A stretch of 64,000 nucleotides of DNA from a candidate division NC10 bacterium CSP1-5 (GTDB taxonomy: Bacteria; Methylomirabilota; Methylomirabilia; Methylomirabilales; CSP1-5), in contig LDXR01000007.1 in assembly GCA_001443495.1 (NCBI GenBank), positions 51,398-115,397 on the forward strand, given 5' to 3'. A program made the translations under genes and the position numbers. Under the pieces are notes generated by a model. The model saw only the letters and a program-made list of their open reading frames with translations, was not told where the DNA came from and ran no database searches. Shown here piece by piece: positions 2,950 to 40,642 of the stretch. Position 1 is the stretch's first letter. Each line of letters begins with the position of its first letter.

Positions 2950-3398
2950 TGGGCCACCCGGGCGTCGAGCCGGAGGGTCTTGGTTCCGAACTGCCCCTCG
3001 ACCCACTCCACGATGATGGTGATGTCGGCGAATCGGTATGGGGAGGTCCCCTGAACCCGCAGCCATGTCCTCCGGGTGAAACTATAGCCGTCTCTCACCA
3101 GGGGGGGAACGATCGTCTCAGTCTCCGAGGGTGCGCCACCAGGGGGCACCCCGCCCGTGTTCAGGCAAACGAGATCGGTAGGCGGAGCCGTGCAGCCTCC
3201 AGCGAGGTCAAAGGGGAGGTGCCGGAGGACCTCAATCTTTTGCTGCCCCAGGTCCGCCGCCGTGGTCATCCCACCGCCGTAGGCAATGTTCTGATAGCCG
3301 GTGGGGAACAGGCTGGCGAGGGCCAGGAGGGCCACACTGAGGATCGCCGCGGCGAACAGTACCTCGATCAGGCTGAATCCGTTCTCCCTTCTTCGCAT
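2946..3398 (-). CDS. PilV/GspI-like minor pilin
   Basis: MRRRENG|FSLIEVLFAAAILSVALLAL is a classical prepilin leader plus hydrophobic helix. The protein is 150 aa. Confidence 0.7.
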   Translation of the reverse strand: MRRRENGFSLIEVLFAAAILSVALLALASLFPTGYQNIAYGGGMTTAADLGQQKIEVLRHLPFDLAGGCTAPPTDLVCLNTGGVPPGGAPSETETIVPPLVRDGYSFTRRTWLRVQGTSPYRFADITIIVEWVEGQFGTKTLRLDARVAQ

Positions 3399-4043: not shown

Positions 4044-5753
4044 TTAGGCCTGGGACCATCGGCCTTTCAAGGTGAGGATCCCCCGTGGCGTCCCGGGGGG
4101 AACGGTGGTGTTAAACAGCGTGTCATAGCCCCAGACGCGGTTGGGCGGGTTGTAGTAGTTGGTCCCCGAGTTTCCGCAGCAGCGCCAATCCCCGGTGGCC
4201 TGGTCGCTATGCCACAGGGCGATGATGGAGCCGTTGTAGGTGAAGGTGTCGCCGCTCCAGTTCTCGAGGAAGCGGATGAGGTTCTCTAACTGGCCGTTGC
4301 CCTGTCCCACCGCCGACTCGCTGTCGGGCCCGAGGGCGAAGGCCGCATTCACCGTCGTGTTCGTGGCCGGCCGGTTCGAGGTCACTTGATTGCCCTTCGT
4401 ATCCGAGTTATTCGGCCCCCAGTTGTTGGAGAGGACGGTGATGGCGTCGCCTAACACGGCCGCCGGGACCTTGTTCACCGTGTTGTAATTCCCCTGGATG
4501 TAGATCGGATTCTCGGAGACGACGGTGAACCCCTGGCTCGGGAGCTGGGTGCCGTTTACCAGGCGGACCCCCTTATCCACGCCATCCCGGGACACGTAGA
4601 GGATCCCGTTCGCCGGCGCCTTGCCGCAGGTCTGCAAGGTCCCGACGTTGACCTCGGTGACGGTCATGGTGGCCTCTTCACGCTTGTCGTAGAAGCTCTG
4701 GGTGGTGACGTTACAGCCCGAGATGTCGACGGGGTTATCGTTCTTATCCTTGGCCGTCGTGACCCCGGCCGTGTCCGTTGAGATCTTGAGGTCTGCCTGG
4801 TAATAGAGTTTGGCAGCTTGCATCGCGGCGGAGTCCGCGGCTATCCCCTTCTCGATCATCTGATGGGAAACGACATCCGGGTTGGCCGGATCGTAAAAGA
4901 GATCCGGAATCGGCGGGATGATCTCCTGGACCCCCATGGTGCTGTCCCGGAGGAGGCCGCCGAAGGTGCTCACCGCCGCATTCATCCATTGGAGAGGCGT
5001 CCACGGGTTATTGAAGTTTTGGTCGTACTCGTGATCGAAGTTGAGGGCCTGATACGCCCCGGCGGCATCCTTCATCTGGGGGTTGCTCCCCCGCGTCGTC
5101 GGATCGCGCTTGAGGTAACGATAGACGTCGCCGACCGTAGTCACGTACGAGTCGAACTGGGTGCTACTGTTGATGACATAAATGTTGCTGTTCGAATGGA
5201 CCCGGCCGTTAAAGGTCATGGGCGGGCCGGGCGCGATCTCCAGGTCCACCCCTCGCCCGTAGAGGACGCCGAACTGGAAGAGGGGGACCTCCATGTACTG
5301 GAAAACCTGGGTGAGCCGGGACCGGCTTCCCCGGGGCCCCCGCACCTCGGCGGTGATCTCGTAGTCGGTCGTCTGGGCGACGAGTCCCGCGTACGCGCCA
5401 CTGCTGATCGTCGTGGCGTACGGCGTGGGCCTGATGCGCTGCACCTGGAAAGTGTTGAAGGTGTAGTTCGGATCGGTCAGCGCAGGGGCGGCGAGGGCGG
5501 CAAGCTGCCAGTCGGCGGGGTTCGGAGCCCCGGCTAAGAGATTCCGGAGACTCACGATCCCCGACTCGAGCCCGGCCTCGGCCCCGTAGAAGGTCTGGGT
5601 CTGATTTCTATAGTTGCCGGCAATGGCATCCTCGGTCTGGGCCGTTGCAAGGAACGCTATCCCCTGGACCAACAAAACAGCCATGATCAGGAGAGTGGCC
5701 ACCAGGACCACCCCTCTTTGCTCGTTCACTGTGTGTGTAATCCGCCGTGTCAT
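4044..5753 (-). CDS. Large PilX-N-terminal-domain protein, first gene of the minor-pilin-like operon
   Basis: ATG 5753 is preceded by AAGGAG with a 7-nt spacer; the track's TTG at 5780 is less likely. The N-terminus is QRGVVLVATLLIMAVLLVQGIAFLATAQTEDAIAGNY (PilX_N-like). The remaining ~530 aa have no motif I recognise. Confidence 0.6.
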   Translation of the reverse strand: MTRRITHTVNEQRGVVLVATLLIMAVLLVQGIAFLATAQTEDAIAGNYRNQTQTFYGAEAGLESGIVSLRNLLAGAPNPADWQLAALAAPALTDPNYTFNTFQVQRIRPTPYATTISSGAYAGLVAQTTDYEITAEVRGPRGSRSRLTQVFQYMEVPLFQFGVLYGRGVDLEIAPGPPMTFNGRVHSNSNIYVINSSTQFDSYVTTVGDVYRYLKRDPTTRGSNPQMKDAAGAYQALNFDHEYDQNFNNPWTPLQWMNAAVSTFGGLLRDSTMGVQEIIPPIPDLFYDPANPDVVSHQMIEKGIAADSAAMQAAKLYYQADLKISTDTAGVTTAKDKNDNPVDISGCNVTTQSFYDKREEATMTVTEVNVGTLQTCGKAPANGILYVSRDGVDKGVRLVNGTQLPSQGFTVVSENPIYIQGNYNTVNKVPAAVLGDAITVLSNNWGPNNSDTKGNQVTSNRPATNTTVNAAFALGPDSESAVGQGNGQLENLIRFLENWSGDTFTYNGSIIALWHSDQATGDWRCCGNSGTNYYNPPNRVWGYDTLFNTTVPPGTPRGILTLKGRWSQA

Positions 5754-5824
5754 CTCTGGACTCCTTCGTCTGAGCCTCAATCCGTTAGACTCGGACCCTC
5801 GGAGGTTGTTTATGCCTGAGAGAA

Positions 5825-5840
5825 AGCAGGGGGTGTGCCA
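5825..5840 (-). promoter_or_regulatory. Sigma-54 (-24/-12) promoter for the minor-pilin-like operon
   Basis: The minus strand reads TTGGCACACCCCCTGCTTT. This gives TGGCAC-N5-CTGC with exact GG/GC spacing, about 70 nt upstream of ATG 5753. Confidence 0.6.
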
Positions 5841-5946: not shown

Positions 5947-7359
5947 TCAATTGAGGCTGGACTTTTTGTCAGGGAGGACGTTGTTCAGGCCGTAGGCTTT
6001 GATCTTGCGATACAGGGTCCGTTGAGAAATCCCCAGGAGACGGGAGGCGGCGGCCTTGTTCCCATTGACCTCTCGCATGGTGGCCAGCAGGGCCTGGCGC
6101 TCGATCACCTCCATGGAGGTCCCGACCGCAAAGGTCAGAGAGCGTTCTGAGGTGAGCTGCCGGAGGTTGCCGGGGAGGTGCTCTGGCCGGATCGCCTCGC
6201 CCCGGACCAATACCACCGCCCGCTCGATACAGTTTTCGAGTTCCCGGACATTGCCCGGCCAGTCGTAGTCCATGAGCAGCGCGAGCGCCTCCGGCGCGAT
6301 CTCCCGGACGTCCCGCTTGAGCCGCTTGCGGTACATCTCGAGGAAGTGCTCGGCCAGGAGGAGGATGTCCTCCCGGCGCTCCTTCAGCTCGGGCAGGTGG
6401 ACGCCGATGACGTTCAAGCGGTAATACAGGTCCGGCCGAAATCGCCCCGCCGCCATCGCCTGGGTCAGGTCCTGGTTGGTTGCGGCGACGATCCGGACAT
6501 CGACATTGATCGACTGCTCCCCCCCCACCGGCTTGACTTCCCCCTCCTGGATCGCGCGCAGGAGCTTGACCTGCATGCCGGGGCTGGTTTCACTGATCTC
6601 GTCGAGGAAGAGGGTCCCTCCATCCGCCTCCTTGAAGAGTCCCCGCTTGGTGGCGATGGCGCCGGTGAAGGAGCCGCGGAGGTGCCCGAACAGCTCGCTC
6701 TCGAGCAGGGTTTCGGTCAGCCCCCCGCAGTTGACGGCTAGGAAGGGGCGGTCCTTCCGGGGGCTGTGGAAGTGAAGCGCCCTGGCGATCAGCTCTTTGC
6801 CGGTCCCGGTCTTGCCCTGGATGAGGACCGTGGCCTCGCTCCCCTCGAGATCCGCGATGAGCCGGTAGATCTCCTGCATGCGGGGGCTCTTGCCCAGGAT
6901 ATTGTCGAACCGGTGCCGCTCCTCGAGCTGGCGCCGCAGGTAGAGGTTCTCTTGCCGCAGGTGCTGCTCCTCGATCGCCTGCTTGACCAGGTGCATGACC
7001 CGCTCGGTGGTCACCGGCTTGGTGAGGTACGCATAGGCCCCTATCTTGATGGCTTCGACGGCCGAGTCGATCGAGCCGTGGGCGGTGGTGATGATCACAG
7101 GCAGGCCAGGAAGGCTGGCCCGCACCGCCTTCAGGAACGCCAGGCCGTCCATACCCGGCATCACGAGATCGCTCATGACGAGATCGACGGGCACGGCCTG
7201 GAGGATGCCCAGGGCTTCCTTGCCGCCGGTCGCGGTGAGCACCTGATAGCCGTGGCTCCCCAGGATCGTTTGGAGCAGCTCCCGAGCGACGGCATCATCG
7301 TCCACCGCCAGGATCTTGATCTTCTTTGGATCGACCTTCACCCTTGGCTCCTGGGCCAT
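5947..7359 (-). CDS. Sigma-54-dependent response regulator (NtrC/PilR-type: REC + AAA+ + Fis-type HTH)
   Basis: REC domain: KILAVDDD...DLVMSDLVMPGMDG. Walker A is GKTGTGKE. A GSFTGA variant stands in for GAFTGA. GGTLFLDEISE and WPGNVRELEN are present, and the C-terminus carries the HTH AAASRLLGISQRTLYRKIK. The start is uncertain (ATG 7359, or up to 7464). Confidence 0.9.
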   Translation of the reverse strand: MAQEPRVKVDPKKIKILAVDDDAVARELLQTILGSHGYQVLTATGGKEALGILQAVPVDLVMSDLVMPGMDGLAFLKAVRASLPGLPVIITTAHGSIDSAVEAIKIGAYAYLTKPVTTERVMHLVKQAIEEQHLRQENLYLRRQLEERHRFDNILGKSPRMQEIYRLIADLEGSEATVLIQGKTGTGKELIARALHFHSPRKDRPFLAVNCGGLTETLLESELFGHLRGSFTGAIATKRGLFKEADGGTLFLDEISETSPGMQVKLLRAIQEGEVKPVGGEQSINVDVRIVAATNQDLTQAMAAGRFRPDLYYRLNVIGVHLPELKERREDILLLAEHFLEMYRKRLKRDVREIAPEALALLMDYDWPGNVRELENCIERAVVLVRGEAIRPEHLPGNLRQLTSERSLTFAVGTSMEVIERQALLATMREVNGNKAAASRLLGISQRTLYRKIKAYGLNNVLPDKKSSLN

Positions 7360-7547
7360 GCTCCCATGTCCCCGGCCGATCTCGAGCGCCCCGGGTGGGC
7401 GGCTTGGATCGGTCGGAGCAGGCATGGGAAGCCCGGCGTCTTCCGGTAGCAAGGATCGGGCCAAAGTGGAGCTCCGCAGCAGCGCGCGAATCGCTTATTC
7501 GGCCGACGGTTAGATTCTGTCCGGCGGAGGGGCTTGGGAGGCTCGGG

Positions 7548-14974: not shown

Positions 14975-15478
14975 ATGACGCGGATGACGGATCCGATTCT
15001 CGCAGAACTTGATCAGGAAGCGGCGACCACCCGGCGAGTGTTGGAGCGGGTCCCGGGGGATAAACTGGGATGGAGGCCTCACCCGAAGTCCATGTCGCTC
15101 GGGCAGCTGGCGCTGCACGTGGCGACCACGCCAGGGCAGGTCGCTGCTTTACTCTCCCAGGGCGAGCTGGAATTGCCGGAGTTCGGCAATGCGCCGGCGG
15201 CCACCACGAGTGCCGAGCTTCTCCCCGCGCTCGAAGAGAGCGTCGGTCGCGCCAGGGCGTTCCTCAACAGCCAGACCGACGACAGCGTCATGTCCACCTG
15301 GAAGCTGATGAAAAACGGGAAGCTCCTGTTCGCCGTACCCCGAATTGGCGCTGTCCGTTCCATCATGCTGAACCACTGGTACCATCATCGGGGCCAGCTC
15401 TCGGTCTATCTCCGGCTGCTGAACATCCCGGTCCCCTCGATCTACGGGCCGAGCGCGGACGAGAACCCCTTCGTGTAG
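14975..15478 (+). CDS. DinB-family (four-helix-bundle metalloenzyme-like) protein
   Basis: ...WRPHPKSMSLGQLALHV... and ...LNHWYHHRGQLSVYLRLL... are present. Confidence 0.85.
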   Translation: MTRMTDPILAELDQEAATTRRVLERVPGDKLGWRPHPKSMSLGQLALHVATTPGQVAALLSQGELELPEFGNAPAATTSAELLPALEESVGRARAFLNSQTDDSVMSTWKLMKNGKLLFAVPRIGAVRSIMLNHWYHHRGQLSVYLRLLNIPVPSIYGPSADENPFV

Positions 15479-15675
15479 GCGCCGGGCGACCCCCCTCAGG
15501 CTCAGGGTGACCGGTTCTTGATCTGAGGCTCTGTCCCGCGACCCGCGATATCGAAGTCCCTGGCTTCCTTCTGTTCCTCTTCTTCTATCAATGCCTTACT
15601 GACCCCTCTTGAGGCCCGAGGCGCAGTCGAAAATTCTTTGCTCGGCGAACCGCTAGCTCTGCTGTTGGGATTCGC

Positions 15676-16389
15676 CTACGCCTTTAATGCGTCGATTGTG
15701 CCCACCAACTCCGTGCAGTCGATGACCGCCCGATCCGTCCGCCTGCACGCGCAGTCGATACAACATTGCAGCTCTCGCACATTTCCCGGCCAGTCATGCT
15801 TCAGGAGGACGCGGTGGGCCGGAAGCGTTATGCCCCGAATATCCCGGCAATACTGCACGTTGAAGCAGTGGATGAAGTGTGCAACGAGCCAGGGGATGTC
15901 CGCCTTCCGCTTGCGGAGGGGGGGCACAGTGATGCTGATGCCAGGCAGGCGACGGAAGAGGTCCGCACGGAATTGTCCTTGCGGCATCGGGGAGAGCAAC
16001 TCCCTAGTCGTCGTTGCAATCACACGGACCCCGGTATGAGAGGCTGCCTGGTGCTTGATAGCGTGAAGGAGCGCGGTCTGCGAGAGCGCCGAGAGCGCGG
16101 CTACTTGCTTCAGAACCACCGTCCCACCGCGGGCGACCTGAGAGGCGCCGTCAAAGAGGTCAACTATCTTGTCCCCGTTCCGGGAATCTGCGGGTAGTGT
16201 CGCGCAGTGTATCAGGACGAGAGGACGGCCCGCCCGGTGCGGGTCTCGGGCATGAATGGCCTGAGCGATCAGGGTCTTTCCTGTCCCCCCCTCCCCGAAT
16301 ACGCAGACAGTTCCTCCTGATGTCGCGAGTGCGCTCACTGAGTGATCAATCTGCCGGATGGCGTTCGACTGGCCCACGATCAGTTTCAT
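15676..16389 (-). CDS. Stand-alone, degenerate sigma-54-activator (bEBP) AAA+ domain protein
   Basis: Walker A is GEGGTGKT. GGTVVLKQV stands where bEBPs have GGTLFLDEI. No GAFTGA loop is present (LFDGASQVARGG). FRADLFRRL and WPGNVREL are retained. There is no receiver or sensor N-terminus and no HTH C-terminus. Confidence 0.8.
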   Translation of the reverse strand: MKLIVGQSNAIRQIDHSVSALATSGGTVCVFGEGGTGKTLIAQAIHARDPHRAGRPLVLIHCATLPADSRNGDKIVDLFDGASQVARGGTVVLKQVAALSALSQTALLHAIKHQAASHTGVRVIATTTRELLSPMPQGQFRADLFRRLPGISITVPPLRKRKADIPWLVAHFIHCFNVQYCRDIRGITLPAHRVLLKHDWPGNVRELQCCIDCACRRTDRAVIDCTELVGTIDALKA

Positions 16390-16439
16390 GGATTCCTCTC
16401 CATAGAAGGGATGTCCTCCGCGGGATGAGATACCTCGGT

Positions 16440-16793
16440 TTACTCAACCCTCGCCTGCTTGGATTCGAGAGACGGTGGGGTTTCGCCAACGAAATGGACC
16501 GCCTCCTTTCCCTTCACGACGTCCGGAGTGATCACCCAGGTCCCTCGACAAGAGGCGCTGGCCACCTTGTCGGCCGTTTCGGGCCCGGCCGCGAGGAGGG
16601 TGAAGCCGCTGCCGATTCCTCCCAGGATGCAGAAAGCCGCCTTGAAGGGGAAGTAAACCGCGGACCCGACCACGCTGCCGACCCCGGTGCCGATTTGAGT
16701 CACGGTGCTCTCTTCGGCCTCTGGCTCTGCCCAACTCGGGGTGGTAAGGGCGAGTAAGCCCAATGTGACCATCACTGCAAGAGCCTGTCTCAT
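16440..16793 (-). CDS. Small exported Gly-rich hypothetical protein
   Basis: ATG 16793 lies 7 nt after AAGGAG. The signal peptide is MRQALAVMVTLGLLALTTPSWA. A hydrophobic Gly-rich core follows (GTGVGSVVGSAVYFPFKAAFCILGGIGSGF). Confidence 0.55.
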   Translation of the reverse strand: MRQALAVMVTLGLLALTTPSWAEPEAEESTVTQIGTGVGSVVGSAVYFPFKAAFCILGGIGSGFTLLAAGPETADKVASASCRGTWVITPDVVKGKEAVHFVGETPPSLESKQARVE

Positions 16794-16818
16794 TTGCCTG
16801 CTCCTTGTCATTTGAAAG

Positions 16819-17361
16819 CTAGCCCTGTTCATCTTGCGCTGCCTGCGGCCGTACCGTCACTTGGACCCGCAGCCGATTACTCGCCTGGCCCTGTCGGTCC
16901 ACGACAAAGACTTCATAGACCCGGATACCGCCAACGGCCCCCTGACGGACCTCTGGCTCCGCCACACTGCCGTCAAATCTGCGCATGGGGAGGGGGCCAG
17001 GAGCTGGGCGCATGGTGACCTTGATAGTCTCCTCCGCCGTCCCCTCCCGGAGGCCCAGGTAGCGGCCGCGACTGATGACGGCAGGGCCAAGCCCCGTGGC
17101 AAGGGTGAAGTCCTTGATCTCCGCGGTGACCCCGAGATAGACGTCAATGATATCGCCCTCCATGTCTCGAAAATCAAAACGCAAAGCCACCTGCGCCCCG
17201 TTTTCCGCATGGGTCGGCTCGATGCGGAGATTGCTGATCCGAGGTACGCCCGGACCGGGGATAGAGGACTCAAAGCTTGTCGCAGCGCAGCCACTGGTCA
17301 ATGCGAGAACAATCGCACATCCCCCAATGGCCAGTGCCCTTTCCTGTTTTCTCATATTCAC
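16819..17361 (-). CDS. Lipoprotein, function unknown
   Basis: The lipobox is AIVLALTSG|C. The beta-rich body has no motif I recognise. Confidence 0.65.
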   Translation of the reverse strand: MNMRKQERALAIGGCAIVLALTSGCAATSFESSIPGPGVPRISNLRIEPTHAENGAQVALRFDFRDMEGDIIDVYLGVTAEIKDFTLATGLGPAVISRGRYLGLREGTAEETIKVTMRPAPGPLPMRRFDGSVAEPEVRQGAVGGIRVYEVFVVDRQGQASNRLRVQVTVRPQAAQDEQG

Positions 17362-17470
17362 CCCCCACCCTCTACGACGGAGCCCAAGATCAACGAAAAC
17401 CGAGAGTCGGAAAGCTCCCCGGGAGGGGGCCGGATGAGGCCCCCTCCCGGAAGCCGAGGGACTGTTGTCA

Positions 17471-17731
17471 CTACTTGAACTTCGTCAGTCCCTCCTGTAT
17501 CGCCTTGATCCCTTCCTCCTGCTTGCCCTCCCGGTGGAGCCTCATGCCCTCCTCGCAGAGCTCCTTGGCCTCCTCATTCTTGGGATCCTTCTTCAACCGA
17601 TCCTGACACTGCTGGTAGAGCTTCGGGGCCTGCGGGTTCTGCAGGGGCCGCTGCTGCTGAGCCCAGCTTGCAGGAACTGCCAGGAAATACAGGCCCAAGA
17701 CCAGCAGGAGTGACAGTGCAACCTTCTTCAT
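17471..17731 (-). CDS. Small exported helical protein, function unknown
   Basis: AAGGAGG precedes the ATG. The signal peptide is MKKVALSLLLVLGLYFLAVPASWA. The mature part is rich in Lys, Glu and Gln. Confidence 0.6.
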   Translation of the reverse strand: MKKVALSLLLVLGLYFLAVPASWAQQQRPLQNPQAPKLYQQCQDRLKKDPKNEEAKELCEEGMRLHREGKQEEGIKAIQEGLTKFK

Positions 17732-18008
17732 TGTGACCTCCTTGGATAAACATCGGTGACGGTTTACCTGCTTTCATCCTTGAGTTCGATAACCTGCCTC
17801 CGCGTCCTCACCTCCTTTCTCCGGCTCTTCCATCCCCCGAGCCCCGGCGTTTTCGGTTGGTATTCCGCGGTTCTGTCGGAAGGATAGGGAACCGAGCAAG
17901 GAACCACAATCGGGGTGAAACCTGATATCGCTGAGGGAAAAACCTGAAAGGAGGGGAGGGTGGAGGCCGAGAAGTGAATGGTGATGGGTATTGTGGCGCG
18001 TGTTTCTC

Positions 18009-18161
18009 TCACCGCAATATGATGATGGCGTTGGCCGTGAGAGCTGCTGCCAAAGCTGCCGCCAAGGTTGCCAGAATGAGTATGCAGAGGACTACGCCTA
18101 TGACTGTGGGGACGAGAATGGCAGCCATGATGCATTCCTCGATTATCTTCAAAACCTTCAT
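18009..18161 (-). CDS. Possible 50-aa hydrophobic membrane peptide
   Basis: GGAG lies 8 nt before the ATG. The sequence is MKVLKIIEECIMAAILVPTVIGVVLCILILATLAAALAAALTANAIIILR. The ORF is below the track cutoff when started at this ATG, and I recognise no homology. Confidence 0.3.
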   Translation of the reverse strand: MKVLKIIEECIMAAILVPTVIGVVLCILILATLAAALAAALTANAIIILR

Positions 18162-18314
18162 CAGTCCGACTCCGTGTGGCAAAAGGGATATCGCGACTCT
18201 GTTGAAGAGAATCGGCAGTGAGACGAGATGAGACAATCGGGTGAGCACCGGATATTTGGCGAGGGAAAATCCCGAAGGGAGGGGAAGGACACCCCCGAGG
18301 GGGCCTCCAGAATT

Positions 18315-18947
18315 TCAGGGCTGGATCAGCCCGCGGCGGATGGCGTAGCGCACCAGGCCGGCCGTCTGACGGATGTCGAGCTTCTCCATGAGCCGGGTGC
18401 GGTGGGATTCGATCGTCTTGACGCTCAACCCCAGCAGCCCAGCAATGTCCTTCGTCGTCTTCCCCTCGGCGATGAGCTGGAGGACTTCCCGCTCCCGCGG
18501 GGTCAGGGGATCGGCGGGGAGGTCGGTCTTGGCCAGATAAGCTTGCACGACGGCCTCGGAGATCCCGGGGCTCAGGTAGCGGCCCCCGCGCATGACCTCC
18601 TGGATGGCCTGAACGAGTTCGGCGATCGCCTGACTCTTCAACACGTAACCACGGACACCGGCCTGGAGGGCCGCGAGGACGTACTGGTCCGCCGTGTGCA
18701 CGGTTACCACGATCGTTTTCGTGCGGCGGGACGCCCGGGTGATCTCACGGGCGGCGTCGAGGCCATTCAGGAGGGGCATGGCAAGATCGAGGACGGCCAC
18801 ATCGGGCTCGAGTTCCTGGGCAAGTTGAGTGGCTTCGCGGCCGTCTGCAGCCTCACCGATGACGGTGAACCCGTGCTGTTCCAAAAGGGTTCTCAGTCCC
18901 TGGCGGATCAGCGGGTGATCATCCGCAATGAGGACTTGGCCCGACAT
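18315..18947 (-). CDS. NarL/FixJ-family response regulator (REC + LuxR-type HTH)
   Basis: VLIADDHPLIRQGL, ...DVAVLDLAMPLLNG and the C-terminal HTH LTPREREVLQLIAEGKTTKDIAGLLGLSVKTIESHR are present. Confidence 0.9.
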   Translation of the reverse strand: MSGQVLIADDHPLIRQGLRTLLEQHGFTVIGEAADGREATQLAQELEPDVAVLDLAMPLLNGLDAAREITRASRRTKTIVVTVHTADQYVLAALQAGVRGYVLKSQAIAELVQAIQEVMRGGRYLSPGISEAVVQAYLAKTDLPADPLTPREREVLQLIAEGKTTKDIAGLLGLSVKTIESHRTRLMEKLDIRQTAGLVRYAIRRGLIQP

Positions 18948-18999
18948 TGTCGCTCCCTACGGTGAAGGCCACGTGGTGGCGCTGAACAGGGCTCAGCGT

Positions 19000-19395
19000 T
19001 CACGCTAATGTAGCCTGCTTGCCCGGGCCGCCTTCCAAGACCTGCCGGATCGTGGTCAGGAGCTCCGGCACCCGAGTTCCTTTCGCCAGGAAGGCGTCGG
19101 CGCCGCTCTGAGCCGCCGCTTGACGGTAGGCGTCCTCGTGATATCGGGTAATGATGATAACCTTTGTTTCGGGCCGCTCGGCCTTGATCCTTCGGGTGGC
19201 CTCCAGCCCGTCGACCCGGGGCATCGCAAGGTCCATGAGGATGAGATCGGGCGACAGCGTCCGAGCAAGCTCGAGGGCCTCCGAGCCGTCCCCCGCCTCG
19301 CCTACCACCCTGAACCCCCGATCCTTTTCGAGAATTCGCATGAGGCTGTTGCGAACTCCTTCATTGTCGTCGACGATCAGGATTGTCGTGGGCAT
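19000..19395 (-). CDS. Single-domain (CheY-like) response regulator
   Basis: TILIVDDNEGVRNSL, ...DLILMDLAMPRVDG and ...KVIIITR are present, and there is no output domain. I chose ATG 19395 over the longer track ORF. Confidence 0.85.
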   Translation of the reverse strand: MPTTILIVDDNEGVRNSLMRILEKDRGFRVVGEAGDGSEALELARTLSPDLILMDLAMPRVDGLEATRRIKAERPETKVIIITRYHEDAYRQAAAQSGADAFLAKGTRVPELLTTIRQVLEGGPGKQATLA

Positions 19396-19595
19396 ATAGC
19401 AGTCGACTCTCATGCTGGTAGTCCAGATCGTCTCACAGATCAAACGCCTCTTGCTGATATTAAGCCAATCGGATGGGCCTTGGGGAATCGGGTAAAACCC
19501 GGATTCGGATGGGGGAAATCCCGCAAAAGCCACGCGGGACACCGTGGTTCCACGGTGGCAGCGCGGTCCCGCATGCGGCTGTCAGCCTAGGATGG

Positions 19596-20804
19596 TTACG
19601 AGTGATCCGGGTCCGCCACGACATCCTCGTCCTGCAAGGGGATCGTCAGCCGTAGTTCTGTTCCCTGGCCGGGGGCAGAAGTGATTGTGGCTCTGCCGCC
19701 CACCTCGGCCACCCGCTCTTGGATGCTAAGCAGGCCGATGCCCCGCCTGCCCCACTTGGCGAGGGCGGCCCGCACCTCAAAGCCGATCCCGTCATCGCGG
19801 ACGGTGCAACGGATTTGCTGGGGCTGTCGCTCGAGCTCGATCCACACCCGGCTGGCCCTCGCATGCTTCGCCACGTTCGTGAGCCCTTCCTGGACGCCTC
19901 GGTAAATGACCGTCTCGATCTCTCGCGAGGGACGCGGCCCGAGGGAGCCCTCCACTGTGATGTGAAGCCCTGTCCGGGTTGCCACTCCCTGGCCGAGAGA
20001 GTCCAGAGCGGGTTTGAGTCCCAGGTCGTCCAGGATCGGGGAGCGGAGTTCGTGGGAGAGGCGCCGGAGGTGCTCCTCGGCCTGGTGGAGCTGGCCGCGA
20101 ACCGCTTCGAGGTGCTCCTGTGCTTGCAGGGGGAGCGCCTCGGCCAGCTCCTCCAGCTTGAAGTGGATCGCGGCGAGGAGTTGCCCCGCGATATCGTGGA
20201 GGTCGCGGGCGATCCGTCTCGCCTCCACCTCCCGGGTCTGCTGCACTGCGGCCGCGAGCGCGCGGAGCTGGTCCCGATGGGAGACCAGATCTTCGTATAG
20301 CTTGGCGTTCTCGATGGCAACCCCGATGATGCTGCCGATGGCCCGGAGCGTATGCAGCTCGAGCGGGGAGAACGGCACATCGCTGCGCCGGGCGATGAGG
20401 GCCACACCCAGAGGCTCGGCCTTCGAAAGGAGGGGAACGCAGGCGACGATGCGGAAGCCTTCCCCATCCAGGCCGGCCCGAATGGCCGGATGCTTGATGG
20501 CCTCGACCGGCCATATACTCACCTTCTTCGAGGTAATCGACTCGTCAATGATCAGTGACTCGTTGGGCTTGATGGTTGCCGCATAGATCGGTGAGAATTC
20601 CTCATGAGGGCCGGCAGTCAGGATCCCGCTCGACAGGTCACGGAGGTACAGCCCTGCAATCCGCACCCCGAATGCGAGCCGGATTTCGGCAGCCGCGGTC
20701 TGGATGACCTCCTCTACTTTATGGGCGCGGCCCACGGCAACGGCAAGGTCGTGGAGGACCTGTCCATGGGCATCCGTAGGAGGGGGGCTGTGTTGTTCGC
20801 TCAT
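19596..20804 (-). CDS. GAF-sensor histidine kinase (HisKA_3 / NarX-type)
   Basis: The N-terminus is GAF-like. The H-box is RIARDLHDIAGQLL. HATPase motifs are LTNVAKHA, RDDGIGF and GIGLLSIQERV. The start is uncertain (20804 or 20822). Confidence 0.9.
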   Translation of the reverse strand: MSEQHSPPPTDAHGQVLHDLAVAVGRAHKVEEVIQTAAAEIRLAFGVRIAGLYLRDLSSGILTAGPHEEFSPIYAATIKPNESLIIDESITSKKVSIWPVEAIKHPAIRAGLDGEGFRIVACVPLLSKAEPLGVALIARRSDVPFSPLELHTLRAIGSIIGVAIENAKLYEDLVSHRDQLRALAAAVQQTREVEARRIARDLHDIAGQLLAAIHFKLEELAEALPLQAQEHLEAVRGQLHQAEEHLRRLSHELRSPILDDLGLKPALDSLGQGVATRTGLHITVEGSLGPRPSREIETVIYRGVQEGLTNVAKHARASRVWIELERQPQQIRCTVRDDGIGFEVRAALAKWGRRGIGLLSIQERVAEVGGRATITSAPGQGTELRLTIPLQDEDVVADPDHS

Positions 20805-21247
20805 GATCGGTCCGCAGAACACTCTGGTGTTCAGGATCCACTCCCGGGCATTCGCTCGGCAGGTTCAAGCGGATGGTGCCTGGGGGGAGTACGCCCGTGA
20901 AGGGGATTGCCCGAGATACGCCCTAATTGTTCATTGTGTTGATGTTATCGGGTTGTTGTGGATGGCTCCTTCCAAACCGCGCAGAGGCTATTATGCTTGG
21001 TCGGACTGATGCGTTTGAAGTTTTCAAAGGGGCAACCTCCATGCCAACATCGGACGGGATCCGTGCCTTTGGGAGCAGTCGCTTAATGTTCAAGGTCTTG
21101 TGCTTGTACCCCTTAACCCCTGTATCAGGGTTGAACGGCCCTTGGAGGTCGAGCGAGGAGGTAAGATTTACACACTCGCAAGAGAGCTCACCCCCCCGGG
21201 GGGGCTCATTGGGGCCGAGGTGGTGGATGGGCAGTGGCGGCCGGCGA

Positions 21248-22042
21248 TTAGAGGCGCAGGCGCATGCCGTCGTATGCGACCTCGTCTTCGAAGTCCTGGA
21301 GCCGGGCCAGGGCATCAGCGTGGAGGTGGGTGAGGAGCAGGCGTTTGCACTTGAGTGCCGATCGGTGCGCCCGGATATCCTCGTAGCTCATGTGAAAGCG
21401 GATTTTTCGATCATAGCGGTAGGACTCGCAGATGAAGAGGTCGCAGCCCTCGGCGAGGTCGATGAGGTTATCCGTCCACTCGGTGTCACCGGAGTACCCA
21501 AGAACCTTTCCTCCCGCCTTCACCTTGTACCCGTAAGGGATATCCCGCAGGTGATGGACCACCTCGAGTGGGAAGGCCTCTATCGGGCCGATCCGTGTCC
21601 ATTTCTTCGGCTCGAGCTCGAGATACTGGACCGTGAATCGCCGTGGCATCATCTCTCGCGTCTCTTTGTACATCAGTCCCCATAGGCCTTCGATGCACTG
21701 CTCGGTTCCGGGGGGGCCGGCGATGATCAGGGGCTCGTCACGCTGGGTGAGAAACTGATACTGTAGGAAGAGGAATGGAATGCCCGACATGTGATCCCCG
21801 TGCAGGTGGCTAATTAGGATGGCCCCGATGGCCCCCGGATCCAGGTTGAGCCGCTTCAACATGATGAGGGTCGTGGCCCCACAGTCGAGGAGAAAGCCCC
21901 AGGAGGGGAGATGTACCAGGAAGGCGGTGTGATTTCGTCCGCCGCTCCCGAACGCATCACCCGATCCGAGGACGATGAGTTCTACCGGTCCCTCGGGCAC
22001 CCCCCCGCCGCTCTCCCCTTTCTCTTTCTTCTGTGCCGTCAT
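21248..22042 (-). CDS. MBL-fold metallo-hydrolase (RNase Z / PhnP-like)
   Basis: LIVLGSGDAFGSGGR and ISHLHGDHMSGIPF are present. Confidence 0.85.
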   Translation of the reverse strand: MTAQKKEKGESGGGVPEGPVELIVLGSGDAFGSGGRNHTAFLVHLPSWGFLLDCGATTLIMLKRLNLDPGAIGAILISHLHGDHMSGIPFLFLQYQFLTQRDEPLIIAGPPGTEQCIEGLWGLMYKETREMMPRRFTVQYLELEPKKWTRIGPIEAFPLEVVHHLRDIPYGYKVKAGGKVLGYSGDTEWTDNLIDLAEGCDLFICESYRYDRKIRFHMSYEDIRAHRSALKCKRLLLTHLHADALARLQDFEDEVAYDGMRLRL

Positions 22043-40585: not shown

Positions 40586-40600
40586 TGGCACGCCGCTTGC
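40586..40600 (+). promoter_or_regulatory. Near-consensus sigma-54 (-24/-12) promoter
   Basis: TGGCAC-GCCGC-TTGC matches TGGCAC-N5-TTGC exactly. Confidence 0.55.
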
Positions 40601-40642
40601 TAACTTGGCATGATGAAGCGTGGCACAAGGAGGCTGACGGAA

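Follow-up and report, generated by a model that had tools for sequence, protein, structure and literature searches.

A stand-alone, probably hydrolysis-deficient relative of sigma-54 activators in an envelope-protein gene island of candidate division NC10

Bacterial enhancer-binding proteins (bEBPs) serve as the obligatory motors of sigma-54-dependent transcription. A 64,000-nucleotide stretch of the genome of candidate division NC10 bacterium CSP1-5 (contig LDXR01000007.1, positions 51,398 to 115,397; hereafter the window, in whose coordinates all features are given) contains a minus-strand gene (15676..16389) for a protein of 237 amino acids (KRT70001.1) that consists of a degenerate bEBP-type AAA+ domain and its lid. 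What might such a module do by itself? Comparative analysis identifies it as a lineage-specific pseudo-enzyme descended from a bEBP, and its motifs suggest that it may bind nucleotide without hydrolyzing ATP, remodelling sigma-54 or binding DNA.

A reduced bEBP module and its family

Both Pfam models of the sigma-54 activator domain match the 237-aa protein, PF00158 (Sigma54_activat; 2.1e-21, 76.8 bits against a cut-off of 20.2) in two separate stretches and PF14532 (Sigma54_activ_2; 5.2e-19, 69.3 bits, cut-off 25) in one full-length stretch, as does the lid model PF25601 (AAA_lid_14; 1e-17, 64.1 bits, cut-off 27). No further Pfam or NCBIfam domain was detected in the protein, neither a C-terminal helix-turn-helix (HTH; Fis/HTH_8) nor an N-terminal sensory domain, and the NCBIfam models of NifA, NorR, ZraR, NtrC and PspF match it via their central domains only. 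Because an upstream stop codon makes 5' extension of the open reading frame (ORF) impossible and the C-terminus falls just past the lid, the protein is a stand-alone central module; a Shine-Dalgarno sequence (GGAG/AGGA) lies 5-12 nt 5' of its ATG. HMMER alignment to solved bEBPs gives ZraR as the best match (1.7e-34), followed by NifA, DmpR/CapR and NtrC1, and the AlphaFold2 model (pLDDT 86.4, pTM 0.83) resembles NtrC1, VpsR, NifA, FleQ, ZraR, NtrX and PspF in a Foldseek search (TM ~0.8). By homology the protein belongs to the bEBP central-domain superfamily. PADLOC returned only generic RtcR/PspF-like AAA+ matches and no sign of a defence system.

The protein is not a peculiarity of one genome. 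A word-index search of 5.8 billion proteins yielded a family of 17 clusters (62-98% identity) of stand-alone proteins of 234-286 aa, apart from an entry wrongly called as 327 aa and a fragment of 160 aa; the extra residues of the longer orthologues are low-complexity spacer read-through. Every named member derives from metagenome-assembled genomes (MAGs) of candidate division NC10 / Candidatus Methylomirabilales. After these clusters there is a sharp drop to ordinary multidomain bEBPs, at most 42% identical among the matches listed. An exhaustive HMMER search of 1.84 billion representatives added only one stand-alone relative, P0205 (49% identity), in which the Walker B region reads LVLKDV, the L1 loop is absent and both arginine fingers are gone. 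A possible HTH remnant in the C-terminus of P0205 ('AARLLGISRDRL', 'LGISR'-like) was a visual lead only and was discarded, having no Pfam match. A scan of genome contigs with the family alignment was hampered by patterns as generic as WPGNVREL and RKRKxDIPW, and among the matches listed there were ordinary bEBPs (29-39%) and no family member; a scan of metagenome contigs with the 237-aa protein found nine loci, all close relatives, which were used for synteny.

The state of each motif was determined from HMMER alignments to ZraR, NifA, DmpR/CapR and NtrC1, a BLASTP alignment to the NtrC-type bEBP of the window, and an alignment of 101 sequences (17 family members and 84 ordinary bEBPs), all of which agree. 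The Walker A motif GEGGTGKT (residues 32-39, 16273..16296, minus strand) is present, and its G32, G35, G37 and K38 (GxxGxGK) are invariant in the family, although the residue that follows is threonine in 16 of 17 members versus glutamate in 74 of 84 ordinary bEBPs, so that the usual GKE has become GKT. The hhhhDE of Walker B is replaced by VVLKQV, with Lys94 in place of aspartate and Gln95 in place of glutamate (16105..16110, minus strand). At the aspartate position the family has lysine (16/17) or arginine (1/17), versus aspartate in 82 of 84 ordinary bEBPs; at the glutamate position it has glutamine in 14 of 17, versus glutamate in 82 of 84. With the outlier P0205 included, all 18 sequences have a basic residue at the aspartate position, which points to a nucleotide pocket that has been remodelled rather than one that has decayed randomly.

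The sigma-54-contacting L1 loop is also missing. What remains of the L1/GAFTGA region (RNGDKIVDLFDGASQVARG, residues 70-88, 16126..16182, minus strand) is 10 residues shorter than in bEBPs, and the confident AlphaFold2 model shows a continuous helix there instead of a protruding hairpin. HMMER sets DLFDGA against GAFTGA and splits the deficit into a gap of 3 residues ahead of DLFDGA and one of 7 behind it, and MAFFT places a single 10-residue gap at GAFTGA; whether DLFDGA or DKI stands opposite the motif depends on the aligner. All 17 family members share this deficit and lack GAFTGA. In all of them the pre-sensor-I insertion (L2 loop), which like L1 grips sigma-54 in bEBPs, is also shorter by 8 residues, the deletion lying between G120 and V121 of the 237-aa protein (16027..16032, minus strand). 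The sensor I asparagine is replaced by threonine in this protein, and in 14 of the 17 family members overall. The arginine-finger region FRADLFRRL (residues 140-148, 15946..15972, minus strand) is intact in the window copy but drifts among orthologues: the first finger, R141, is arginine in nine, histidine in six and glutamine in two members, and the second, R147, is arginine in 12 and histidine in five, whereas both are arginine in 84 of 84 ordinary bEBPs. Arg205, in the sensor II motif WPGNVREL (residues 200-207, 15769..15792, minus strand), is retained in 15 of 17. The P-loop, a VPPLRKRKxDI linker and the WPGNV.EL motif are fixed in the family.

An initial annotation, made from the sequence of the window alone, had described the protein as the central AAA+ module only, with Walker A, FRADLFRRL and WPGNVREL present, DE replaced by KQ and the GAFTGA loop deleted, and had proposed that it probably cannot hydrolyze ATP or remodel sigma-54. 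The profile alignment and the structure prediction bear out each part of that description. The predicted loss of hydrolysis and remodelling is sound because the Walker B and GAFTGA losses are fixed across a conserved family, and the drift of the arginine fingers, sensor I and sensor II strengthens it; the changes in the arginine fingers and Walker B indicate that the catalytic apparatus is no longer constrained. Judged by its sequence, the protein is defective in three features that define a functional sigma-54 activator (GAFTGA/L1; Walker B; L2, sensor I and the fingers), and it possesses the motifs for nucleotide binding, namely the Walker A P-loop and the sensor II arginine.

It is thus extremely improbable that the protein is a working sigma-54 activator that acts from solution in the manner of isolated NtrC-family central domains. 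The fold, Walker A, sensor II and, in the window copy, both arginines would be compatible with such a role, but both acidic residues of Walker B are replaced, GAFTGA is unrecognizable, L1 and L2 are shortened by 10 and 8 residues, and in most cases activity is already abolished when only the central F or T of GAFTGA is substituted (PMC3162934). Nor is there a sigma-54 promoter in the cluster. A search of the whole window for TGGCAC-N5-TTGC-like sites with at most two mismatches gave 21 matches versus 21.0 expected, none of them between 15.6 and 18.3 kb on the coding strand, and sigma-54 dependence of the cluster itself was discarded on these grounds. Sigma-54 regulation probably operates in the cell nevertheless, since the window contains a canonical NtrC-type bEBP (5947-7464) with GSFTGA and DE intact, 35% identical to the 237-aa protein, and a perfect sigma-54 site (TGGCACGCCGCTTGCT, TGGCAC-N5-TTGC; 40586-40601, plus strand). 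A sigma-54-like site with one mismatch (TGGCACACCCCCTGCT, 5825-5840, minus strand) lies between this bEBP gene and the gene of a 578-aa PilX_N-domain protein (4044-5780), an arrangement that suggests a PilR-like circuit.

Has the gene, then, simply ceased to matter? Pairwise ratios of nonsynonymous to synonymous substitution (dN/dS) for the AAA+ gene across eight lineages range from 0.19 to 0.55, versus about 0.08-0.24 for neighbouring genes in the same genome pairs (0.09-0.10 for a NarL-type regulator gene, 0.135 for AHSA1, 0.08-0.22 for DinB). It is under purifying but relaxed selection, and it is not a pseudogene. That the protein is a functionless relic of a PspF-like activator formerly in control of the surrounding gene island, now decaying and carried along by operon transcription, would account for the progressive losses of L1, DE, sensor I and the arginine fingers, for the relaxed dN/dS compared with ~0.1 for the NarL gene, for the ongoing deletion of genes next to the AAA+ gene, and for the reading of its 3' spacer as a variable C-terminal tail in some orthologues. 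This explanation is nonetheless quite improbable, given that dN/dS is clearly below 1 in 28 of 28 pairwise comparisons and that no frameshift or premature stop is found in ~11 distinct lineages (dS ~0.2-0.7), in all of which length and termini are preserved. Moreover, the family shows little or no variation at K74, Q84, K94 (or R), T126 and the VPPLRKRK motif, and the gene is intact in a lineage that has deleted its downstream neighbours.

The gene island and its erosion

Three small genes of the same strand lie upstream of the AAA+ gene, and their products were taken as exported from features read by eye, without a predictor: n-region, h-region and AxA in the 86- and 117-aa proteins, and a lipobox-like cysteine in the 178-aa protein. 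Nearest is the gene of a 117-aa exported, Gly-zipper-like hydrophobic protein (16440..16793; signal peptide ...TPSWA|EP; dN/dS 0.12-0.32), whose ORF extends over 16440-16832 and whose start at ATG 16793 is that chosen by gene callers in relatives. It is preceded by the gene of a putative lipoprotein (16819..17355; dN/dS ~0.3), with a conserved cysteine in LTSG|C; starting from ATG 17355 of the ORF at 16819-17361, this protein has 178 residues, and its homologues form 66 clusters, of which all the source-named ones are Methylomirabilales/NC10. Farther upstream is the gene of an 86-aa exported helical protein (17471..17731; signal peptide ...PASWA|QQ; dN/dS 0.55-0.83).

The initial annotation had recognized these three small proteins correctly, but its tight run of four minus-strand genes with the AAA+ gene as the last requires qualification on both counts. 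The four ORFs exist; the 86-aa gene, however, is 109 nt apart from the next gene, and directly after it is a conserved, GC-rich, terminator- or attenuator-like hairpin (17413..17455, minus strand; -44.8 kcal/mol, z = -3.6) that is nearly invariant and better conserved than the flanking coding sequence. Termination, attenuation and RNA stability are conceivable functions of this hairpin, and its position implies that transcription of the 178-aa, 117-aa and AAA+ genes needs read-through or an unrecognized promoter. As for the AAA+ gene being last, this is true of the window but is a derived state, due to a lineage-specific deletion.

Evidence for the deletion comes from neighbourhoods on the contigs of 11 distinct lineages, mapped with tblastn. 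The most constant neighbours of the AAA+ gene are downstream: the gene of a 146-aa exported protein, either overlapping the AAA+ stop codon or situated shortly after it, is followed by that of an exported PRC-barrel protein. The pair is found in L001, L002-L006, L087-L089 and L092; L090 has a truncated version. By blastn, L001 is collinear with the window to position 15568, after which 864 bp of L001 are skipped and the match resumes at 15569-15505; the deletion (junction ~15568/15569) took the whole 146-aa gene and most of the PRC-barrel gene, of which a remnant of ~21 codons, the last 65 nt of the gene, is detected by tblastn at 15505..15569 (minus strand). Six MAGs of the window species have this layout, and the AAA+ gene looks last in its run because the two downstream genes have been removed. 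The 146-aa protein has an N-terminal signal/anchor/lipobox ahead of a long coiled coil; it is therefore probably periplasmic, and an analogy with the PspA-PspF pair was rejected.

Upstream of the AAA+ gene, conservation is partial. The 178-aa and 117-aa genes are found there in six lineages (the window species, L107, L002/L003, L004-L006, L109 and L087-L089), in some of which a Gly-zipper_YMGG or MlaC gene is inserted before the AAA+ gene. Three other contigs have none of the 178-, 117- and 86-aa genes: the order is REC (receiver domain), Gly-zipper, AAA+ in L001, a 354-aa MazG-like protein then AAA+ in L090, and PRC-barrel then AAA+ in L091. In L092 the AAA+ gene begins 92 nt from the contig end, hence the upstream genes are out of view. 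In one strain, L106, the AAA+ protein of which is 96% identical, only 109 nt (3131-3240) separate the 178-aa and AAA+ genes, the 117-aa gene apparently being gone. Conversely, distant homologues of the 178-aa protein (~52% identity; L099-L101, 7001-7519) are encoded directly after hydantoinase A/B in other NC10 genomes, overlapping or close to its stop codon; genes for galactose-1-phosphate uridylyltransferase, P-II and glutamine synthetase are in the vicinity, and an AAA+ gene is not. The initial annotation was to be considered refuted if the four genes were never syntenic elsewhere; they are syntenic in several NC10 lineages, and the annotation stands in this respect, but the genes are not an obligate module.

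What recurs around the AAA+ gene is a type of island, composed of small exported or membrane proteins (PRC-barrel, Gly-zipper, coiled-coil, lipoprotein, and DUF3096/DUF1328-type). The outlier P0205 is encoded among DUF3309, DUF1328, Iron_permease-like and two PRC-barrel genes, which extends the link with small envelope and membrane proteins to the edge of the family. Since in alphaproteobacteria the general-stress regulons of EcfG and RpoE2 include PRC-barrel genes (PMC6599016, PMC6180224), the island may, by analogy, be called stress-type.

Two non-coding segments flank the AAA+ gene. A spacer of ~100 nt after its stop codon (window 15570-15675, minus strand; L001:1926-2012; L004:8702-8842) is conserved in DNA; some genomes read it in frame as a C-terminal tail (...PNEEFS..GPQEGP...), others as the N-terminal extension of the gene that follows. 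The spacer is probably constrained without coding for protein. On the other side, a leader of ~50-90 nt 5' of the AAA+ start (window 16390-16440, minus strand) is kept in L109, L001, L002, L090, L092 and the window, whatever lies upstream, with its distal 45 nt absent in the window and L107. The leader could be a gene-specific promoter or a translational control element.

Upstream regulation and possible modes of action

The island of the window lineage, like that of its closest relatives, is downstream of a two-component system consisting of a GAF-HisKA_3-HATPase histidine kinase (19596..20822), a single-domain REC protein (19000..19395; likely start MPTTILIVDD) and a NarL/LuxR-type response regulator with REC and GerE domains (18315..18947), all on the minus strand. 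Between the NarL gene and the 86-aa gene is an ORF for a 50-aa hydrophobic peptide (MKVLKIIEEC...AIIILR; 18009..18161, minus strand), called at 50-52 aa in relatives. An extra insertion of ~250 bp lies just upstream of this ORF in L002 and L004.

Alignment of the intergenic region 5' of the 86-aa gene with those of relatives revealed a 45-nt element (…GGGATTTTCCCTC…ATATC.GGT…CCCGATTGT), in which a GGGATTTTCCC-type inverted repeat is followed by ATATC.GGT and then by CCCGATTGT. There are exactly three copies in the 64 kb, where 0.11 would be expected by chance for the core, all of them on the minus strand: E1 upstream of the 50-aa peptide ORF (18230..18276), E2 ~175 nt upstream of the 86-aa gene (17904..17948), and E3 upstream of the REC-NarL genes (19482..19525). 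The same three positions are filled in L002/L003, L004, L093, L095 and L097; all three copies are also present in L098, on a shorter contig, and two in L094. The element has neither a sigma-70 nor a sigma-54 consensus and is probably a promoter or operator of the adjacent two-component system. The three conserved copies suggest that the GAF-kinase/REC/NarL system runs a local, autoregulated regulon, one distal output of which is the AAA+ gene. A scan of 15300-19000 for the sigma-70 consensus found no promoter-like sites, and an Rfam scan of 15000-21500 gave a chance miRNA match only and no riboswitch.

Given these surroundings, the protein might serve the island independently of sigma-54, as an adaptor that binds a nucleotide or second messenger and tunes the envelope genes through a partner such as REC, NarL or the kinase, in effect a split and re-purposed NtrC-like module. 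The AAA+ gene is always in the same type of island whatever its immediate neighbours, even in the 49%-identical outlier; REC-only genes are present upstream in the window lineage and, in L001, directly upstream; and the ~50-nt leader travels with the AAA+ gene regardless of the upstream gene. Other bEBP-derived AAA+ domains are ligand sensors, FleQ and VpsR being binders of cyclic di-GMP (PDB titles). A PilZ gene is located near the AAA+ gene in L090. Two contacts of FleQ with cyclic di-GMP, the arginine of an N-terminal LFRS and a post-Walker-A Arg-Asn, appear to be absent, however: residue 3 of the 237-aa protein aligns with FleQ residue 147, which would put the LFRS arginine ahead of residue 1, and the corresponding residues after Walker A read AQA. 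Neither a partner nor an interaction surface can be named, and whether the two-component system accompanies every member cannot be judged for the more distant ones, whose contigs are too short. A role of this kind is, on balance, somewhat unlikely.

The initial annotation had suggested that the protein may poison or scaffold a true bEBP hexamer or have been turned to an envelope-linked use. The reading that we favour, albeit tentatively, is that of a hydrolysis-dead, nucleotide-binding pseudo-bEBP, an output of the envelope-stress island, that co-assembles with or titrates an active bEBP. Produced when the stress-type island is expressed, the protein would act purely by protein-protein contacts, as a non-catalytic, nucleotide-loaded AAA+ subunit; most likely it would co-assemble with, or titrate, the ring of an active bEBP, and sigma-54-dependent transcription would be damped or re-specified while the island is on. 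Precedents have been described: the inactive form of RedR inhibits its active partner via the central domain (PMC10084136), and GAFTGA-defective bEBP homologues are sigma-54-independent (PMC3162934).

Several observations weigh against co-assembly or titration. No partner is encoded nearby, and all other conserved proteins of the island look extracytoplasmic. The nearest full-length bEBP is 42% identical among the matches listed, and the bEBP of the window 35%, values that weaken the case for hetero-oligomerization when RedR1 and RedR2, which form a hetero-oligomeric pair, are nearly identical to each other. The arginine-finger helix, which is located at the interface between subunits of bEBP rings, drifts in the family, which could mean that ring assembly is no longer selected. 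Nucleotide binding is itself deduced from motifs, dN/dS of the AAA+ gene is two to three times that of neighbouring regulators, and the island is eroding, the window lineage having lost the two usual downstream genes and L106 lacking the 117-aa gene.

A more specific scheme, which we consider unlikely, would make the protein a dedicated dead AAA+ subunit, in which the Walker B lysine replaces the Mg2+ site and nucleotide is held permanently, and which is switched on together with the envelope-stress proteins by the two-component system and enters or caps active bEBP rings. If this were so, it would constitute a new way to shut down or re-specify whole sigma-54 regulons, with the genome itself encoding a subunit that poisons a transcriptional AAA+ motor.

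Comparison with known bEBP derivatives

The closest architectural parallel is FleT of Rhodobacter (Cereibacter) sphaeroides, which likewise consists of the central AAA+ domain only, with no N-terminal regulatory domain and no HTH, and is believed to assemble into hetero-oligomers with the full-length bEBP FleQ (PMC10084136, PMC7277832). Unlike the NC10 protein, FleT is a sigma-54 activator, needed together with FleQ for class III flagellar promoters, and its context is flagellar genes rather than an envelope-protein island. The NC10 protein, having lost the Walker B DE pair, L1 and L2, would be capable of neither catalysis nor sigma-54 contact, and FleT is set apart from it by its published description. 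In its favoured role the NC10 protein would resemble RedR, the inactive form of which blocks the active partner, and would contrast with FleT, which helps FleQ.

Loss of GAFTGA has precedents in TyrR, DhaR, HupR, VpsR, YplP, NtrX and Caulobacter NtrC, which descend from sigma-54 activators, have a short deletion within the motif or a substitution in it and are sigma-54-independent (PMC3162934); VpsR and NtrX are among the closest Foldseek matches of the 237-aa protein. TyrR, DhaR, HupR, VpsR and YplP act at sigma-70-type promoters (PMC3162934), and several of the GAFTGA-defective group keep sensory domains, whereas DNA-binding and sensory domains are both absent from the NC10 protein, which has lost the Walker B pair as well. 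PexR, also considered for comparison, is a canonical bEBP and was set aside as not relevant.

In starting at the AAA+ domain, the 237-aa protein resembles PspF and HrpR-HrpS (PspF-type models match it over nearly their full length, TIGR02974 at positions 1-235), and the PspF-type architecture (AAA+ plus HTH, no N-terminal domain) is likely to be the ancestral one. PspF and HrpRS are, in contrast, active ATPases with GAFTGA and an HTH, and are controlled by trans-acting partners (PspA, HrpV); neither a partner of this kind nor an HTH was found here. Closer to the favoured role are PspF mutants engineered in Walker B or GAFTGA, the ATPase-dead or inactive domains of which can still join rings and modify what their active subunits do (structures and a study of PspF E108Q, PMC4132715); inactive RedR subunits can do likewise (PMC10084136). 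The natural Gln95 of the NC10 protein mimics the E-to-Q trap substitution. The PspF mutants and RedR are laboratory variants or regulated states of complete activators, whereas the NC10 proteins are a naturally fixed, stand-alone family.

What was known before comprises GAFTGA-less derivatives that bind DNA, and FleT, which lacks flanking domains and is still an activator subunit. The NC10 family, as judged from its alignments, combines loss of GAFTGA with reduction to the central domain and loss of the Walker B pair, and among the papers that the literature searches returned, one search being dominated by eukaryotic C/EBP proteins, there was no description of a conserved family in which catalysis, sigma-54 contact and DNA binding are lost together and which is yet under selection. 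The family is narrow, its constraint is relaxed, and its hosts are uncultured or hard to grow; it flags an uncharacterized envelope-stress-type island and cis-element in Methylomirabilales, the order that includes the nitrite-dependent methane oxidizers. Compared with FleT, RedR and the GAFTGA-defective regulators, the NC10 protein would represent, should other bEBPs be its targets, a natural trans-dominant regulator of sigma-54 regulons and, should it act elsewhere, an AAA+ transcription motor recycled as a nucleotide-binding adaptor.

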